Assembly: GCA_965249135.1 (NCBI GenBank)
Contig: OZ252220.1
Span: 64,001 to 128,000 of the forward strand
From: Alphaproteobacteria bacterium
GTDB lineage: Bacteria; Pseudomonadota; Alphaproteobacteria; GCA-2746255
Direction: 5' to 3'
Length of the DNA: 64,000 nucleotides
A program made the position numbers. Shown one piece after another: positions 18,001 to 24,000 of this stretch (position 1 is its first letter; the number at the start of each line of letters is the position of its first letter).

Positions 18001-21000
18001 TAACTGAATCCGAATTCGGCGGAAAGATCGCGTTCCTCGGTGTCGAAAAACTGATAGCCGGCGCCCCCGCCTGTCGCCGTGCGACGATTGAGGTCCTCAA
18101 ACTTATCGCGCTCGAAGCTCGCATTAAGGAAAGCAAACCACTGCTTCGTAAGGAAGTAATCGTACTTGGCAGAGACGAACGTATTATCATCGGTTTCTCT
18201 GCCGTCGTTCTTTTCCAGGTTGTATTCGAAGACAAGCTTCGCCCGGTGACGTTGCTTGCGCGCATTCACTTCCCCATCCACGTGATAGTTGTCTTCGTCA
18301 TTATTGCCTCTCTCGGCATCGAAGCCGAGATTGAGGCGGCCCCGCAATTCGAGTTTCCCTGCTTCCGAAACCGCAGGCTGAGCCGCCGCCTTGGGGGGCG
18401 CGGCCCGGGTCGCGATCTGCCGGGTAGCGGTCTGAATATCCGTGAAGCGAAATTCCCAGGCGCGCGTGAAGTCGGGGGTGACGAGCTGAAGCATGCTCCC
18501 ATAGCGGGGCGCGATCGTGCCCACGAGCCGCGTGCCGCTCGGAAACGTCACGTGCAAGGGCCAGTCCGCCTGGATGGCGGCAACCTCCTGGCGGCGAATG
18601 CGAATCCTGCCCGCGTAAGTCGTTTGCAGGGCGACTTCCTTCGGGTCGATCCCTTCGATCGTCCCTCTAAGGCGGTCGCCGGATTTCAGGAAAACCTCAT
18701 CTGCGGCGGCGGCGCCGGCGAAAACGAGGAAAAGAGCCAGGAGAACCAGACAGATCGGCCCTCGGAGATTGCCTCCCCTCAGCACGCGATCCGCCCTAGA
18801 GGTCGCACACCCCGCAAAGCAAGCGATTCCGCAACGGGTTTTCGTCTCACTGCCCCTCTCGCCCTTGCCATCCGCGCAATTGGCAAGCCCAACGTCAGCG
18901 GGCGCCAGTCCATGGCGTAAAGCATATCTCTGTTAGGCAACACCGTTCCGACGAATTCCACGAACGAAAAAGCATGCCCGGACAGGTGACGAACACCGCA
19001 CGAGACCCTATACTGTGGCGCGACGGACTTGGTGACAAGCCCTTCATTCAGCCACTGCCCGTTTTTTCCAGGCAGCTACGACTAGACGATCGGCGGACGG
19101 AACGAACCAAACCGGTCCCGTTCCGTTAGGTGCGGTTGCACTTCTAGGTGCGATCGCACTTCGCTCGCCCCGTGTGTCTCAGCCGGTTTGAGTTCTAGTG
19201 TGCTTGCCAAGAGAGGAAGGCGAATCTGTGGTGCCTGCTCGAAGAGCCTGAGCCGCGGAAGTTTTTTTGTCGGGATTGAATTGCTTATGGAACAGTGGAG
19301 AAGAATAGGTCGATGATCGCTCATGATCGCGCAACCACGGCGCTCCTGCTCGCTGCGGGTACAGGAAGTCGTTTGCGCCCATTGACCAAGAACGCCCCGA
19401 AGTGTCTCACTGAAGTCGGTGGCATCCCAATCCTCGAACGGCTGGTCAACAACCTGCGTGAACACGGAATCAAGAGGCTGGTGGTGGTTATTGGACACCT
19501 GGGCGACCATATCCGCGATTTCCTGAACGATAAGGCGGGCGATATGCAGGTCGACTGCATCCTCAGCCCCAAGTACCAGACAACCAACAACATCTATTCC
19601 CTCTGGCTGGCCCGGGAACGAATCCGGGAACCGTTCCTGCTGGTGGAAAGCGACCTGATCTTCGATGCCTTGATGTTGGAGAACATGCTCCATCCGGACA
19701 AGATCGCGATTTCCCGCATCCGGCCCTGGATGAACGGGACAACGGTGACAGTTGGCCCCGGGAGGCGGGTCAGGGCCTTCAATGTCGGCGGCGGTGCGGA
19801 GGATGACGTACCGCGTTACAAGACGGTGAATGTCTACAGCCTTTCCGCGCCGACCTGGAACAAGACCGTGACAAGACTGAACCGCTACATCTCGAATGGT
19901 AGGGTCGGTGAGTATTACGAAGCCGTTTTCGCTGAAATGGTTGCCGACGGCACGCTTTCCTTCGAAGTGGCCTTCTTCGATCCAGACCGCTGGTATGAAA
20001 TCGACACCATGGCGGACCTCAACGAAGCGGAAAGGAGGTTCGGTGGGATGTCCCACCCCTACGTCGGGCCAGATGTCTGCCGTCTTCAAACCGCCGGGAG
20101 AGGCTCGTTGACATCGGTTGCCGCGAATGACTGAGATCAACTACGCAACGGCCAACCGGTATTGGGAAGGGGCCACGCCTTCGATCCTCGGGCCGTACAT
20201 GATGGACGGGTTCGGCTTTCCCGTGAGCGCGGGAGGGTTCCGTTTCCGGGCGGAATCGCGGATCGTCCGGCGACTGGTCCACAGCGTGAAACGGGACGGC
20301 ACGGTCCTCGATCTCGGAAGCGGCGTCGGGTTCTGGGCCGGGGACTTCGCTGCTCGCTTCTCCCAGGTAGTCGCGGTCGAGGGTAGCGGGACGCTGTACC
20401 AGGCTTTGGAGAGAAGGTGCGCTCCACACCCTAACGTCCGTCCCGTCCACGACAACGTCATGTCGTTCGAGCCTGACGGTCGCTATGACCTGATCTTTCT
20501 CGGCGGCCTGCTCATGTACCTCAACGAAAAGGACGTGATTGCCCTGCTGCGGAGACTGGTTCCGTTCCTCGAACCGGGCGGAATGATCCTGTGCCGCGAG
20601 TCCACCGTCCGCGGCGAGACCGTAGCACGTCGGGGCGACTACCAGGTCGTCTATCGTTCCGTGCTGGACTACGGACGTATCTTCGGGCAATGCGGATTGA
20701 GCGTCCGGCACATCGAGAGAAACGAGCCCTATGTTCTCATGCAGATGGGGTGCGAACTGGTCAAGATATGGAAGGAAACGGTGTCTGAGCGATTTCAGGT
20801 CCTTCGGGGCGTTGGCCATTTGACGTATTTCATGTTGCGCCTGGGAAACCCCTGGATCACGCGCGTTCCCAAGGTGCTGGGTATTCCGTTTCCGAAGCTG
20901 GAAAACCACTTCTTCGTGCTCGAAGCGGAGCGTCCTTAATATTTATGGGGCGCAGTCGTTTCCATCGGCTCAGGCCCGCTCCAACTCACGCTCATCTCGG

Positions 21001-24000
21001 GGGCAACGATGGAAAATCCACCGGGAAATTTCGTTTACCGGAATTTGGCCAACGTGACGTCGATTCTCGGCGCGCTGCCTCTCGTAATTCTCTTCCTGGA
21101 TGACGGCTACCGATACCTGATCCCGCTGATCCTGTTTAACAACGTCATGGACGATCTAGACGGCATTCTGGCTGCTAAACTGAACATCAGAAGTCGGTTC
21201 GGCGGCGACCTCGACAACATATGCGACGCGGTCGCTCACGTCATTTTAGCCATGGCAGTCGGCGCGCATTTCGGCGGCATCCTCATCGCCGCGAGTGTGA
21301 TCGCAGCCGGCTCGATCATTCTTCGCGTTACCTCCCGGCTCGATCCCGATACAGCCACGAGGACGGGCTCTCCGACGAACGAACTCATGCGCCACATGCT
21401 GTTCGTCCTCCTGCTGGCCGGGCAGTTCGACTTCGAGCCCGCATATATCCTGATCCCGGTATTCCTTCTGCATTCGGTGTCGATGCTCATGCCGTTAAGG
21501 ATGCCCACCCTCATCCGGAGCCGAGCCAAGTCGGCGGCCACGGTCGGTATGGTGAATGCGGCGCTGGTGGTGGCTTGGCTCATGCCTCCCGCCACGCCGG
21601 TCGTCGCGGCCGCCTTCATCGGCACCTACCTGTATGCCTTCGGCGTGGGGGCCGTTCGTTGGTCGAAGGAACGGGGCGGCGAGACACGTCCATAACAAAC
21701 CCCGGGGGCGTCCGCGCTTGCCGCCTCCGGCCTCTGGTTCAAATGAACCAACCAATCGCTGTTTCTTTTCAACTTAACTCTTTGAAAACATTGGTGGGCG
21801 CTGCTGGGTTTGAACCAGCGACCCCTGCCGTGTGAAGGCAGTGCTCTCCCGCTGAGCTAAGCGCCCTTAAGCCTTAAGAGCGCGATATAAGGGGGCCGGT
21901 TTTCACCTGTCAAGGAAGGCTGCGGATCGCTTCCGGTAGGTCCTTGAAATCCTCGATGAGCGCGTCCGCACCCAGCGTCTTTGGATCGGAAGGCGCGTAG
22001 CCATACGTCACCATAATCGCAGGCGTGCCGACGCGCTTGCTGACGACGACGTCCATGTCGTGATCGCCGACCATGACCGCCTCATCCGGGGCTAGGCCCA
22101 TCTGCTCGAGGGTTTCGAGAAGATGGGCAGGATCCGGTTTGTGTTTTGTGACCCGGTCGATCGAGAGGATGTCCGGAAAATAGGATAGGAGCTCCATCTC
22201 CTCGAGAATCCTGACCGCCGCCGCATAGGGGCGGTTCGTCACGATGCCAAGCTTGATGCCTGCCTGGCTTAACGCTTCCAGCGTCTCGGGAACCCCGGGA
22301 TAGGGCTCGACATATTTCCTGCAATTTTCCTCATCCAAATAGAAGGCCATGTAGCGCTCGAGAACCTCTGGATAGGCCTCATCGGATAGAGATTTCTTAC
22401 AAACCCTGAAGGCCTCGCGGATCATGAATTCGATGTTGTCCTGAAAGAGGCTCCTGACGGTGGGGGTGTCGAGCGGGCCCAGGCCATTCGTCTCAAGGAC
22501 GTGGTTGACGGTCGCCACATAGAGCGGAAGGCTGTGCACCAAGGTTCCGTCGATGTCAAAAAGGGCGGCTCGGCAGGCCATCGTTCAGGCGGCTCCTCGG
22601 GGCTCTCGTAAATCTTGTTTTGGACGCGGCGAAGGCTTTATGACAATCTCTCTGGGCCGGCCGCAAGGGGAAAATATCAAATCGCTCGCGATTCTATGGC
22701 CAAGCGAAAAACTGCAATTCTCATCCTAGCCGCAGGAAAAGGCGCGCGGATGAAGTCGGGCCTGCCGAAGGTCCTGCATCCGCTCGGCGGCCAGCCGCTC
22801 ATACGTTATGCGCTGGCCACGGCACGCTCGCTGCGCCCCGAGCGCGCCGCCGTCGTCATCGGCCCAGGCATGGAGGCGGTCACGGAAGTCGTCAAGCCCT
22901 GGCCGACCCTTCTTCAGAAGACCCAGGCCGGAACCGGAGATGCCGTGCATGTCGCGCAGAAGGCGCTTGCCGGATTCACTGGCGACGTCCTCGTCATTTT
23001 CGGGGATACGCCGTTCTTAGGCGCGCAAACTTTGAAGAAGCTTCTTGCGCGCAAACGGGCGAAACCGGAGCCCGTCGCCGTTGTTCTTGGCATGTGCCCC
23101 ACGGATTCGGCCGAATATGGCCGTCTCGTCACGGATGCGGATGGCACGCTTGAGGCCATCGTCGAATTCCGCGAGGCGAACGAACGCATTCGGCAAATCC
23201 CGCTTTGCAATTCCGGCGTCATGGTGGTCGATGGGAAGCACTTGTTCCGTCTTTTGGGCCGCATCAAAAAAAGCCGCGTGAAGGGCGAGTACTATTTGAC
23301 GGATCTGGTCGCCATCGCGCGCAAGGAGGGCCTCGTTTGTGCCTATGTGGAAGGAGACGCATGGGAGTTGCTGGGCGTGAACGACCGTGCGGATCTGGCC
23401 GAGGCGGAGGGGCTCTTTCAACTCGAGTGTCGGGCGGAGGCGCTGGCAGGTGGTGCGACGCTTCTTGATCCGACGACCGTCTGGTTCAGCTTCGATACGA
23501 AGCTTGGCAAGGACGTGACCATCGGTCCGAACGTCTTCTTCGGTCCCGGTGTCACGGTGGCCGACGGGGCAACGATCCGTGCTTTTTCGCATATCGAGGG
23601 GGCGAAGATTGGCAAACGTGCCGTCATCGGCCCGTTCGCACGCCTTCGTCCGGGGGCCGACATCGGGGAAGGGGCCCATATCGGAAACTTTGTCGAGATA
23701 AAGAAGGCGAAGATTGAGGCCGGCGCGAAGGTGAACCATTTGACCTATGTTGGAGACGCCTTGATCGGTCGGGACGCAAACATTGGCGCCGGTACGATCA
23801 CATGCAATTACGATGGTTTCACGAAATCGCGTACCATCATCGGCAAGCGTGCCTTTATCGGTTCGAACACGGCACTCGTGGCTCCCGTCACCATCGGCGA
23901 TGGTGCCGTCATCGGGGCCGGCAGCGTGGTGACGAAGAACGTCTCTGCTAATTCGTTGGCGCTGACCCGCGCGGAACAGCAGGAAGTCAAAGGCTGGGCG

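Follow-up and report, generated by a model that had tools for sequence, protein, structure and literature searches.

A horizontally mobile three-gene cassette in an alphaproteobacterial genome, possibly encoding a Kennedy-type route to an N-methylated lipid head group

The window analysed here is a stretch of 64,000 nucleotides of contig OZ252220.1 (64,001 to 128,000), and all coordinates are positions within it. Three ORFs on the forward strand, at 19313–21695, code for a cytidylyltransferase (NT), an N-methyltransferase (MT) and a CDP-alcohol phosphotransferase (CDPOH), in that order. This is the operon proposed in the initial annotation, and the Pfam families agree with its assignments. The features of the region are:

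9899–17418 (no strand): phosphonolipid-type gene cluster, older and self-contained, outside the cassette (Pfam, NCBIfam, PF01066 scan of the genome)
17357–17401 (no strand): left copy of a 45-nt direct repeat, duplicate of the 3' part of tRNA-Val and left end of the islet (100% identical to 21792–21836)
17658–18785 (minus): DUF481 outer-membrane protein, the islet's only gene besides the cassette (PF04338, 5.4e-51)
19313–20134 (plus): NT, LicC/PntC-like CTP:phospho(no)-aminoalcohol cytidylyltransferase, 273 aa, ATG start (Pfam and profile search)
20127–20939 (plus): MT, class I SAM-dependent N-methyltransferase of the PMT-MT1/NTM1 type, 270 aa, ATG start (PDB search, profile, AF2 model)
21009–21695 (plus): CDPOH, divergent 8-helix CDP-alcohol phosphotransferase, 228 aa (PF01066, AF2 model, structure match)
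21792–21866 (minus): tRNA-Val (CAC), whose 3' 45 nt are the right repeat copy and the right end of the islet (ARAGORN, repeat finder)

The operon is tight: the NT stop codon overlaps the MT start (8 nt overlap), and 69 nt separate MT from CDPOH. Alternative starts are a GTG at 19295, upstream, for NT (279 aa) and a TTG at 20118 for MT (273 aa), the 270 aa form of MT having the length of most of its relatives. The Pfam matches are NTP_transf_3 (6e-11) and NTP_transferase (9.6e-11) for NT, Methyltransf_25 (8.2e-13) and Methyltransf_PK (3e-11) for MT, and CDP-OH_P_transf (PF01066, 6e-7) for CDPOH; none of the three reaches an NCBIfam equivalog cut-off. Metatranscriptome contigs identical or nearly identical to parts of NT (19820–19990) and MT (20610–20812) are a weak hint that the cassette may be transcribed.

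Related loci were collected from 177 pattern matches, 119 of which encode an MT relative, and 80 loci (55–84% identity) were kept, in agreement with the earlier counts. NT lies directly upstream of MT in 74 of the 80 (71 earlier) and CDPOH directly downstream in 76 (75 earlier), while both adjoin MT in 71 loci from many phyla. The hosts are found amongst Nitrospinota, Nitrospirales, Planctomycetota, Gamma- and Alphaproteobacteria, Bryobacterales and others. Clustering of the 980 flanking ORFs of these loci again gave no fourth conserved gene, the next-largest clusters being present in 7 (a shadow ORF on the opposite strand), 6 and 5 of the 80 loci, and no common theme was seen among 115 neighbouring ORFs.

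The cassette is horizontally mobile and arrived on an islet at tRNA-Val, 4.4 kb in length, with the perfect 45-nt repeat at both ends (repeat spacing 4435 nt). In the sibling genome G002 the islet is missing, and tRNA-Val directly follows the FkbM gene with nothing in between. The DUF481 gene is missing from the syntenic site in both G002 and G001, and no homologue of its product was found across the 80 related loci. The cassette MT was found in none of the five same-genus sibling genomes. It is this insertion at tRNA-Val which placed the cassette next to the PEP mutase (PepM) cluster. The latter contains genes for a PhyH dioxygenase, a truncated CDP-OH transferase (10717–10977), a CDP-OH transferase (10981–11580, minus strand), an AEP transaminase, a phosphonopyruvate decarboxylase, a PEP mutase-PntC fusion, a second cytidylyltransferase and an FkbM methyltransferase, which fits the "Burkholderiales_CDP-OH" group-1 phosphonolipids as described in passages of PMC8942020. 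It is present in all five same-genus genomes, and its gene order is conserved in G002 and G001. The initial annotation offered this cluster as a possible feeder of the cassette. This is not supported, as the cluster has its own fused PntC, second cytidylyltransferase and CDP-alcohol transferase, and in none of the five siblings was the cassette MT found.

The two best solved relatives of NT are LicC (4.9e-21) and the PntC Tde1415 (4.4e-15) with the single sequence, and the same two, both matched over the full length, with a family profile of 68 sequences (1.3e-24 and 3.6e-20). Both activate small aminoethyl phosph(on)ates. The invariant residues of NT include E112, D114, W139, K170, Y202, E203, W227 and D231. 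At the two amine-contacting positions NT has Glu112/Glu203, as does the AEP-specific Tde-PntC (Glu104/Glu196), whereas the phosphocholine-specific LicC has Asp105/Asp192. Going by these residues, the Glu pair would argue against phosphocholine as the NT substrate, although the rule is weak, since it fails for the phosphonate-cluster enzymes of the window itself, which have DAD and YGD at that site.

The Glu pair would in turn favour a phosphonate version of the pathway, in which the head group 2-aminoethylphosphonate (AEP), made by the cell or taken up, would be N-methylated by MT and converted to its CMP conjugate by NT or PntC, with CDPOH yielding an N-methylated phosphonolipid. A PEP mutase cluster adjoins the cassette both in the window and in locus L012, and both NT-less cassettes with enough flank (L035 and L073) belong to genomes in which a PEP mutase-PntC fusion is present and a cassette-type NT is not. 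A PEP mutase over cut-off is found in 14 of 78 cassette genomes, compared to about 5% of bacterial genomes overall according to a passage of PMC8942020, and a weaker relative of MT is the phosphonate O-methyltransferase DhpI (2.1e-8, Z 20.0). We nevertheless regard this version as unlikely: the other 64 of the 78 genomes have no PEP mutase over cut-off (two have sub-threshold matches, and the MAGs are incomplete), the cluster is ancestral in the genus, has its own transferase and occurs there without the cassette, and its adjacency in the window is accounted for by the tRNA-Val insertion. A true PEP mutase within 10 kb is seen in one of the 80 loci, the number reported before, and this locus is L012; the match in L069 was rejected, being a methylisocitrate lyase in a methylcitrate operon.

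The previously reported PDB matches of MT were reproduced exactly, namely AtPMT2 (1.2e-23), AtPMT1 (4.5e-22) and, as the first non-PMT, YunM (1.2e-06), with a third PMT, 6wlf (4e-10), in between. The best stretch is the MT1 domain (residues 55–212), which scores 57.7 bits against 27.2 for MT2, and by sequence nothing is closer to MT than the MT1 domains of phosphoethanolamine methyltransferases from plants and nematodes. With the family profile, the best solved relatives are four MT1-containing PMTs (AtPMT2 1.2e-24, AtPMT1 6.2e-24, 6wlf 3.3e-16, HcPMT1 8e-12), and NTMT1 is found at 1e-9. The family has 23 invariant columns. Apart from one C-terminal Gly they fall within the stretch that MT has in common with the MT1 domain of six PMT-like di-domain proteins (one verified as a full PMT, 1.8e-131), the shared columns including YW, MYL, RE and YR. 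The AF2 model (pLDDT 91.8) is marginally closer to protein N-terminal methyltransferases than to PMTs (Z 25.4 for NTMT1, 22.8 for AtPMT1); both of these structurally closest classes methylate primary amines. Eukaryotic MT1-type methyltransferases, from plants and nematodes, stop after the first methylation; the cassette may thus yield mono- or dimethyl-PE and not necessarily phosphatidylcholine (PC).

The C-terminal 70 residues of MT are family-specific and conserved, with three helices and one strand in the model, and could contact the membrane or CDPOH. This would suit another order of events, in which the Kennedy route run by NT and CDPOH gives PE, or a lipid whose head group is not yet methylated, and MT, in the manner of PmtA, acts on the amine once it is bound to CDP or to the lipid; the Glu/Glu pocket of NT fits a primary amine as well. 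However, the substrates of MT's sequence relatives are soluble phosphobases or peptide N-termini, while bacterial PmtA is absent among the best 60 of 75 PDB matches to the MT profile. The genome moreover makes PE through PssA and Psd (both over cut-off), so that nothing beyond a lipid methyltransferase would be needed and NT and CDPOH would be superfluous, which makes this order very improbable.

For CDPOH, the PDB offers no relative at E<=0.01 (the best match is at 0.042), as stated previously. The motif D48-x2-D51-G52-x2-A55-x9-G65-x3-D69-x3-D73 is invariant in 65 sequences, with all four catalytic Asp kept. The AF2 model (pLDDT 90.1) consists of a short N-terminal helix and 8 helices, and its best structural match is the archaeal PSS from M. 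jannaschii (TM 0.67–0.76, Z 20.2, 199/202 residues), well ahead of PIPS (Z 12.0), PgsA (Z 10.2) and the 6-helix DIPPS (Z 10.1). Every solved diacylglycerol-dependent choline/ethanolamine phosphotransferase is distant (Z 7.5–8.8), and no CPT or EPT was found in the profile search at E<=1. The best relatives in both sequence and structure are CDP-diacylglycerol enzymes, and the weak NCBIfam matches are pssA and pgsA, which could mean that CDPOH is a CDP-diacylglycerol-dependent synthase (PSS or Pcs type) making a phosphatidyl-alcohol, with NT and MT in an unrelated or loosely linked step. We consider this the least probable of the readings weighed, as it leaves the strictly co-inherited cytidylyltransferase without a role, CDPOH does not match the Pcs model at E<=0.01, and no conserved phosphatase would free the alcohol from the phospho-base.

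A second patch invariant in the 65 sequences (R106, R110, G120, T123, N124, E125 and R128) is polar and basic, and its Arg, Asn, Glu and Thr residues would also suit a polar acceptor. CDPOH could then transfer the CDP-aminoalcohol moiety to a small polar alcohol, as in IPCT/DIPPS, giving a methylamine phosphodiester osmolyte or piezolyte, or to a glycan or protein. NT does resemble the IPCT domain (NF041135 2.5e-19; 2xme 4.1e-11), the hosts are marine, deep-sea and vent bacteria by their record titles, and a few cassettes have osmotic-stress neighbours, i.e. an MscS-type channel (L073), an Na+/H+ exchanger (L064), an inositol-1-phosphate synthase (L049) and an OpuAC transporter (L012). These neighbours are however anecdotal (4 loci, 115 ORFs scanned), and no phosphatase or exporter was conserved beside the cassette in the 80 loci. 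The architecture of CDPOH, much closer to the 8-helix PSS, in which helices 7–8 enclose the lipid chains (passages of PMC8633023), than to DIPPS, favours a lipid over a soluble product, and known glycan phosphocholine transferases such as LicD are another family according to passages of PMC10434233. A non-lipid product therefore appears distinctly unlikely.

The cassette is read most economically as a cytidylyltransferase coupled to a CDP-alcohol transferase. We propose, tentatively and with slightly less than an even chance of being right, that it is a self-contained, horizontally mobile module which makes an N-methylated lipid head group by a route of the Kennedy type. MT would N-methylate a soluble 2-aminoethyl phosphate, most likely phosphoethanolamine, at least once and possibly three times; NT would couple the (methylated) phospho-base with CTP to a CDP-aminoalcohol; and CDPOH, in the membrane, would release CMP and place the phospho-aminoalcohol on a lipid alcohol, of which diacylglycerol is the most likely. 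The product would be a lipid of the phosphatidyl-N-methylethanolamine series (MMPE, DMPE or PC) whose synthesis needs no free choline. The data show the enzyme families with their intact catalytic motifs, the compact operon, its synteny across phyla and its mobility, and from these we infer which amine is used, how many methyl groups are transferred, whether MT or NT acts first, what the acceptor is, and where phosphoethanolamine and diacylglycerol come from; a phospholipase C acting on PE would, speculatively, supply both of the latter. As for the supply of phosphoethanolamine, the genome has no Choline_kinase-family match, only a pair of APH-family kinases, both uncharacterised, and a single group II decarboxylase. 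It has neither a Pcs over cut-off nor an R-type PmtA, and thus no other recognisable PC route.

The observations of the initial annotation are confirmed, and its interpretation as a whole is partly supported. PC as the product is over-specific given the MT1-type methyltransferase. The Glu/Glu pair of NT also speaks, if weakly, against phosphocholine, and CDPOH is not a CPT/EPT relative. The initial count of a fifth bacterial route to PC ignored the CDP-choline pathway of T. denticola. No report of bacterial phosphobase methylation was found in the literature searched. Should the proposal be true, phosphobase methylation would be the new element, and the cassette would provide many marine bacteria with a choline-independent route to phosphatidylcholine-type lipids.

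The cassette is made up of three open reading frames on the forward strand, coding for a cytidylyltransferase (NT), a methyltransferase (MT) and a CDP-alcohol phosphotransferase (CDPOH), and lies on a segment bounded by a repeat of the tRNA-Val 3′ end:

19313-20134, forward strand: NT, 273 aa, matching the Pfam nucleotidyltransferases
20127-20939, forward strand: MT, 270 aa, matching the Pfam class I methyltransferases and also Methyltransf_PK (3e-11)
21009-21695, forward strand: CDPOH, 228 aa, matching CDP-OH_P_transf (6e-7)
17357-21866: tRNA-Val islet (4.4 kb) together with the tRNA-Val, carrying the cassette and a DUF481 outer-membrane gene

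The last 8 nt of NT are shared with the start of MT, 69 nt separate MT from CDPOH, and none of the three proteins reaches an NCBIfam equivalog cut-off. The figures from the species-genome scan in the initial annotation (177, 119 and 80, the last being the related loci kept) were reproduced when the scan was repeated. The 80 loci, all of them MAG records, come from Nitrospinota, Nitrospirales, Planctomycetota, Gamma- and Alphaproteobacteria, Bryobacterales, SAR324 and others. In 74 of them NT is the gene immediately 5′ of MT and in 76 CDPOH the one immediately 3′, with both adjoining MT in 71; the sole exceptions with enough flanking sequence to judge are L035 and L073, which have no NT, and L081, which has no CDPOH. 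The L035 and L073 cassettes consist of MT and CDPOH only, with no cassette-type NT anywhere in either genome, and in L081 2.1 kb separate NT from MT. The clustering of 980 flanking ORFs bore out the claim that no fourth gene is conserved with the cassette. No shared theme was seen either in a Pfam scan of 115 neighbouring ORFs (out of 150 picked, after dropping opposite-strand overlaps with the cassette and short contig-end fragments), MFS transporters and HTH/M78 regulators recurring near the cassette within lineages only. The three genes do form an operon, and it is both conserved and mobile.

The labels carried by the best 120 relatives of MT and of CDPOH are generic or automatic with one exception, and include SAM-dependent methyltransferase, trans-aconitate methyltransferase and phosphatidylserine synthase. 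The MT family is also found in tubeworm endosymbionts (P0094 and P0121-P0129, from records named for Tevnia, Ridgeia and Riftia symbionts), for which proteome data already exist; one of these records is automatically annotated as a phosphoethanolamine N-methyltransferase. Short contigs from one metatranscriptome run match 19820-19990 (NT, 0 differences) and 20610-20812 (MT, 2 differences), which hints, if weakly, at transcription of the cassette in nature.

The position of the cassette is explained by its mode of arrival. A perfect 45-nt direct repeat (17357-17401 and 21792-21836) flanks exactly the segment which is missing from the sibling genome G002, and its right copy is the 3′ part of the tRNA-Val. 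The empty site in G002 reads FkbM, tRNA-Val, HAD, GlmU and GlmS, FkbM and HAD lying 137 bp apart, and has neither the DUF481 gene nor NT, MT or CDPOH. The perfect repeat, the tRNA-Val and the empty site therefore place the cassette on a 4.4-kb tRNA-Val islet, which is also present with its flanks in contigs from three other studies. The MT was not found in any of the five same-genus genomes searched (88-99% complete), and among 35 genomes of the same class the search returned weak generic matches only, in 6. The cassette is a recent insertion and, as the islet shows, is horizontally transferred. No integrase was seen on the islet by ORF and Pfam reading. Close to each end lies a copy of one and the same 16-nt palindrome (17498-17513; 21735-21750), and a promoter and terminator scan of the islet gave counts not above those of shuffled sequences (2 vs 1.3 and 7 vs 5.2).

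The neighbouring phosphonate genes had been proposed to feed the cassette, and this was not supported. The cluster comprises:

9899-10690: PhyH dioxygenase
10717-10977: truncated CDP-OH transferase, 86 aa
10981-11580, reverse strand: complete CDP-OH transferase
within 9899-17418 (whole cluster): AEP (2-aminoethylphosphonate) transaminase, phosphonopyruvate decarboxylase, PEP mutase-PntC fusion, second cytidylyltransferase and FkbM methyltransferase

This make-up is that of the ‘Burkholderiales_CDP-OH’ group-1 phosphonolipid clusters, going by the passages which describe them in PMC8942020. A whole-genome PF01066 scan (2.12 Mb, one contig, 98.75% complete) gave six matches, of which two are located just ahead of the phosphonate genes; the truncated transferase is full length in the other sibling, G001 (L104, 3235-3807), and absent in G002. 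The cluster is complete and does not depend on the cassette for anything. Its conservation extends to all five same-genus genomes, with the PEP mutase fusion at 85-93% identity in each, and it is thus a separate, older unit beside which the cassette came to lie because of its insertion site at the tRNA-Val, independently of the phosphonate genes. Further upstream, at 4909-9644, are genes related to lipid trafficking (an MMPL transporter, a MlaC-like protein, DUF2141 and a MlaA lipoprotein), and the region as a whole has an envelope-lipid theme; synteny with both sibling loci holds for DUF2141 and MlaA, and with G001 (L104) for MlaC, while the MMPL gene was matched in neither.

Phosphonolipid clusters of group 1 resemble the cassette in coupling a cytidylyltransferase with a CDP-alcohol transferase for a lipid head group, as far as the published excerpts on them go. 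The cassette, unlike them, has no linked PEP mutase, decarboxylase or transaminase and so does not qualify as one of their number, and most of the genomes carrying it have no recognisable PEP mutase (14 of 78 have one over the cut-off and two more a sub-threshold match). Of the 80 loci, one has a genuine PEP mutase within 10 kb of the cassette; the one suspected in L069 is a methylisocitrate lyase. In a planctomycete MAG, a PEP mutase match over the cut-off (G101:C315:8836-9675) has two in-frame TAG codons, which might point to a pseudogene or to some oddity of assembly or coding. CDPOH matches the transferase of the window's phosphonate cluster over the catalytic motif only (30% over 46 residues). 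That the head group is nevertheless a phosphonate stays a minority reading, kept alive by the genomes of the NT-less L035 and L073, both of which have a PEP mutase-PntC fusion.

The PDB searches for the three proteins were repeated and returned the values first reported. For MT these are 1.2e-23 for AtPMT2, 4.5e-22 for AtPMT1 and 4e-10 for the nematode phosphoethanolamine methyltransferase (PMT) 6wlf, followed by the first non-PMT at 1.2e-6. With a profile of 77 MT sequences, the four best PDB relatives are PMTs containing an MT1 domain, followed by KsgA, NTMT1 (1e-9) and Plasmodium PMTs of the MT2 type (about 1e-7). The best-stretch scores likewise separate the two PMT domains (57.7 bits for MT1 vs 27.2 bits for MT2), and with its core motifs conserved MT is by sequence closest to the MT1 domain. 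A rival explanation places the methylation at the lipid stage; no bacterial PmtA, S- or R-type, is among the best 60 of the 75 PDB matches of the MT profile. Among 1.84 billion representatives, 53 proteins at E ≤ 1e-30 make up the MT family itself, and the matches include di-domain proteins of 457-503 aa (1e-31 to 1e-21), one of which was checked and is a full PMT (1.8e-131 to AtPMT2). When four cassette MTs were aligned with six di-domain proteins, 23 columns were invariant, 22 of them in the stretch shared with MT1, and the invariant residues include Y12-W13, M130-Y131-L132, R157-E158, Y176-R177 and Y182, with R157 and R177 common to MT1. The bacterial protein would be a relative, standing on its own, of the MT1 half of the eukaryotic PMTs.

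The AF2 model of MT (pLDDT 91.8) was compared with known structures. Its best match is NTMT1/NTM1 (Z 25.4, rmsd 1.8-2.0, 205-215 residues aligned), ahead of the PMT MT1 domains (Z 20.2-22.8; AtPMT1 22.8, BxPMT1 22.6, HcPMT1 22.5). A protein N-terminal methyltransferase was rejected as the main reading on account of the operon context and the sequence match (90 bits for PMT vs 41). Since both NTM1 and the MT1 domain methylate a primary amine, the prediction that MT N-methylates an amine is robust. The choice of phosphoethanolamine as this amine rests on sequence rank and operon context; if it is right, MT would carry out the step of a pathway which has until now been described as confined to plants, nematodes and protozoa. 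The MT1 domains of plants and nematodes perform the first methylation only, and no MT2 partner for MT was found in this genome.

An MT2-type gene does occur beside the cassette in Nitrospirales MAGs, as one member of a methyltransferase pair:

L012 4866-6554, reverse strand: methyltransferase pair beside the cassette
L038 13642-15330, reverse strand: methyltransferase pair beside the cassette

The first member (267 aa) is of the MT2 type over its full length (4.6e-64 to the MT2 domain of AtPMT2, 2.5e-40 to P. vivax PMT), and the second (288 aa) has generic relatives only. At a threshold of at least 55% identity, the MT2-type gene is found in 5 of the 78 cassette genomes, that of the window not being one of them. 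Its presence next to the cassette MT recalls the division of labour between MT1 and MT2 in eukaryotes. Compared with P. vivax PMT, it keeps two of six catalytic and phosphate-binding residues (the catalytic Tyr16 and Tyr178) and carries Tyr, Ser, Phe and Cys in place of His129, Tyr24, Tyr157 and Arg176, and in L012 the pair sits inside an operon, between a PEP mutase and a decarboxylase and without a transaminase. Because of the four changes and the PEP mutase operon, we take the gene as a lead and do not accept it as proof of phosphobase methylation. Immediately after the L012 cassette (2368-2646, reverse strand) is a fragment of 93 residues which shares 92% identity with the C-terminal portion of the MT2-type protein and represents a partial duplication of that protein's gene.

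NT belongs to the LicC/PntC family. The PDB search gave LicC at 4.9e-21 and Tde1415 PntC at 4.4e-15, and a 68-member NT profile raised these to 1.3e-24 and 3.6e-20, both over the full length, the next matches being sugar-phosphate and inositol-phosphate nucleotidyltransferases; the metal-binding aspartates D114 and D231 are invariant. In the parts of Rice et al. (PMC6697681) that treat the active site, Glu104 and Glu196 of Tde-PntC touch the primary amine of AEP, and LicC has at the equivalent positions the smaller Asp105 and Asp192 plus an aromatic box. E112 and E203, both invariant in NT, occupy these positions in the printed alignments, in which Y201 and Y202 align with Y190 and W191 of LicC; the invariant W139 is near LicC W136. 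NT therefore looks like a hybrid, with a PntC-like acidic pair and LicC-like aromatics, and its pocket might be better suited to a primary or monomethyl amine of small size than to trimethylammonium. We give this argument little weight because the Glu/Asp rule derives from one structure of each kind and is broken by the window's own phosphonate-cluster cytidylyltransferases, in which the first amine site reads DAD and YGD.

CDPOH is a member of PF01066 (30.4 bits vs a cut-off of 22), and its best PDB match by sequence has an E-value of 0.042. The family signature, D-x2-D-G-x2-A-R-x8-G-x3-D-x3-D in helices 2-3, is represented by D48, D51, G52, A55, G65, D69 and D73, invariant in 65 CDPOH sequences, so that all four catalytic aspartates are kept; Ala56 stands in place of the motif arginine, and the residue after it, Lys57, shows a conservation of at least 90%. 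A second invariant patch consists of R106, R110, G120, T123, N124, E125 and R128. The search of the ESM Atlas returned its own family only, the Pcs model NF045886 was absent from the matches at E ≤ 0.01, and no CPT/EPT chain appeared in the profile search at E ≤ 1. The AF2 model (pLDDT 90.1) has the polytopic fold of the family, a short N-terminal helix followed by eight helices, and was compared with known structures as follows.

Structural comparison of the CDPOH model with CDP-alcohol phosphotransferases
M. jannaschii PSS: VIA-align Z 20.2 (199/202 residues); Foldseek TM 0.67-0.76
PIPS: VIA-align Z 12.0
PgsA, AF2299 and DIPPS: VIA-align Z 10-10.5 (DIPPS 10.1); Foldseek TM 0.42-0.56 for PgsA
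CHPT1, CEPT1 and Cpt1: VIA-align Z 7.5-8.8; Foldseek TM 0.26-0.29

M. jannaschii PSS (MjPSS, 7B1K/7POW) has the same build, with a short N-terminal helix and eight membrane helices, and according to the available text on that structure also shares a conserved arginine pair at the end of helix 4, although the two proteins have 16% identity and their sequence similarity is confined to the catalytic motif. The CPT/EPT enzymes score below every CDP-DAG enzyme (Z 7.5-8.8), and in the model comparison CDPOH thus stands outside their group by kinship, a CPT-like reaction being still compatible. The PSS-like match lends support to a lipid-bound reaction. The rival of a soluble product has its precedent in IPCT/DIPPS, where a cytidylyltransferase is likewise coupled to a CDP-alcohol phosphotransferase; unlike the cassette, that system has no methyltransferase, and DIPPS, in the portion of PMC8633023 concerned with it, is fused to its cytidylyltransferase, has 6 helices and yields a product that is soluble. 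The same PSS-like match suits the other rival, a CDP-DAG-dependent reaction, and here the gene neighbourhood points to a CDP-aminoalcohol as the donor, not to CDP-DAG and serine. From the linkage to NT, we infer a CDP-aminoalcohol as donor and diacylglycerol as acceptor. If so, the donor would have changed on a PSS-like scaffold, from CDP-diacylglycerol to a CDP-aminoalcohol.

As for other lipid routes, the window's genome codes for PgsA, a second PgsA/Cls-like enzyme, and PssA beside Psd. No protein in it exceeds the Pcs cut-off and none matches the Choline_kinase family; its sole PF04191/PEMT-family match is outside the cassette and resembles an isoprenylcysteine methyltransferase. Two unassigned APH-family kinases and one group II decarboxylase are present.

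Taken as a whole, the cassette follows the logic of the PMT-CCT-CPT pathway of plants, nematodes and Plasmodium, in which a soluble phosphobase is N-methylated with SAM, activated with CMP and transferred by a CDP-alcohol phosphotransferase. It differs from that pathway in having a single-domain MT1 homologue without an MT2 partner in the genome, an NT of the LicC/PntC family, a PSS-like transferase instead of the CPT/EPT type of the eukaryotic Kennedy pathway, and all three genes in one mobile operon. The eukaryotic CCT has a fold other than that of the LicC/PntC family. The CDP-choline pathway of T. denticola (LicCA and a choline phosphotransferase) is also of the Kennedy type with a LicC-type cytidylyltransferase, and needs exogenous choline and a kinase. 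The cassette has no kinase, and a methyltransferase stands in the kinase's place. In the relevant passages of a 2024 paper, the Kennedy pathway is known among bacteria from T. denticola only (PMC11409717). The sections of a 2023 survey on the subject give four bacterial routes, Lic-1, PmtA, Pcs and acylation (PMC10434233), and the same survey and PMC12139422, in their corresponding parts, present PmtA (S- and R-type) and Pcs as the established routes to mono- and dimethyl-PE (MMPE, DMPE) and PC. Within open full texts (subscription-only papers and supplements being outside the scope of the search), we found no report of bacterial phosphobase methylation or of this cassette.

The initial annotation had read the cassette as a Kennedy-type route to phosphatidylcholine. 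Its Kennedy-type part, a module for assembling an N-methylated aminoethyl-phosphate head group and attaching it to a lipid, stands as a reading that we put a little short of an even chance, while PC as the product is unproven. A more tentative proposal, less likely than not, is that many marine, vent and symbiotic bacteria share a portable three-gene module making PC-series lipids de novo and without choline, through the methylation of phosphoethanolamine and a PSS-like enzyme that has switched its donor.

PC and its methylated precursors influence both the membranes of bacteria and their interactions with hosts, and the hosts of the cassette include nitrite oxidisers, sulfur oxidisers, planctomycetes, acidobacteria and tubeworm endosymbionts. 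If the reading is true, bacteria would have a new lipid pathway, a choline-independent route of the Kennedy type that uses phosphobase methylation. The module could account for MMPE, DMPE and PC left unassigned in lipid surveys of the deep sea and oxygen-minimum zones, and the cassette would serve marine lipid surveys as a genetic marker showing where methylated PE and PC come from. It would also offer a test case for the change of donor in a PSS-like enzyme and bear on the origin of the MT1 domain of eukaryotic PMTs.
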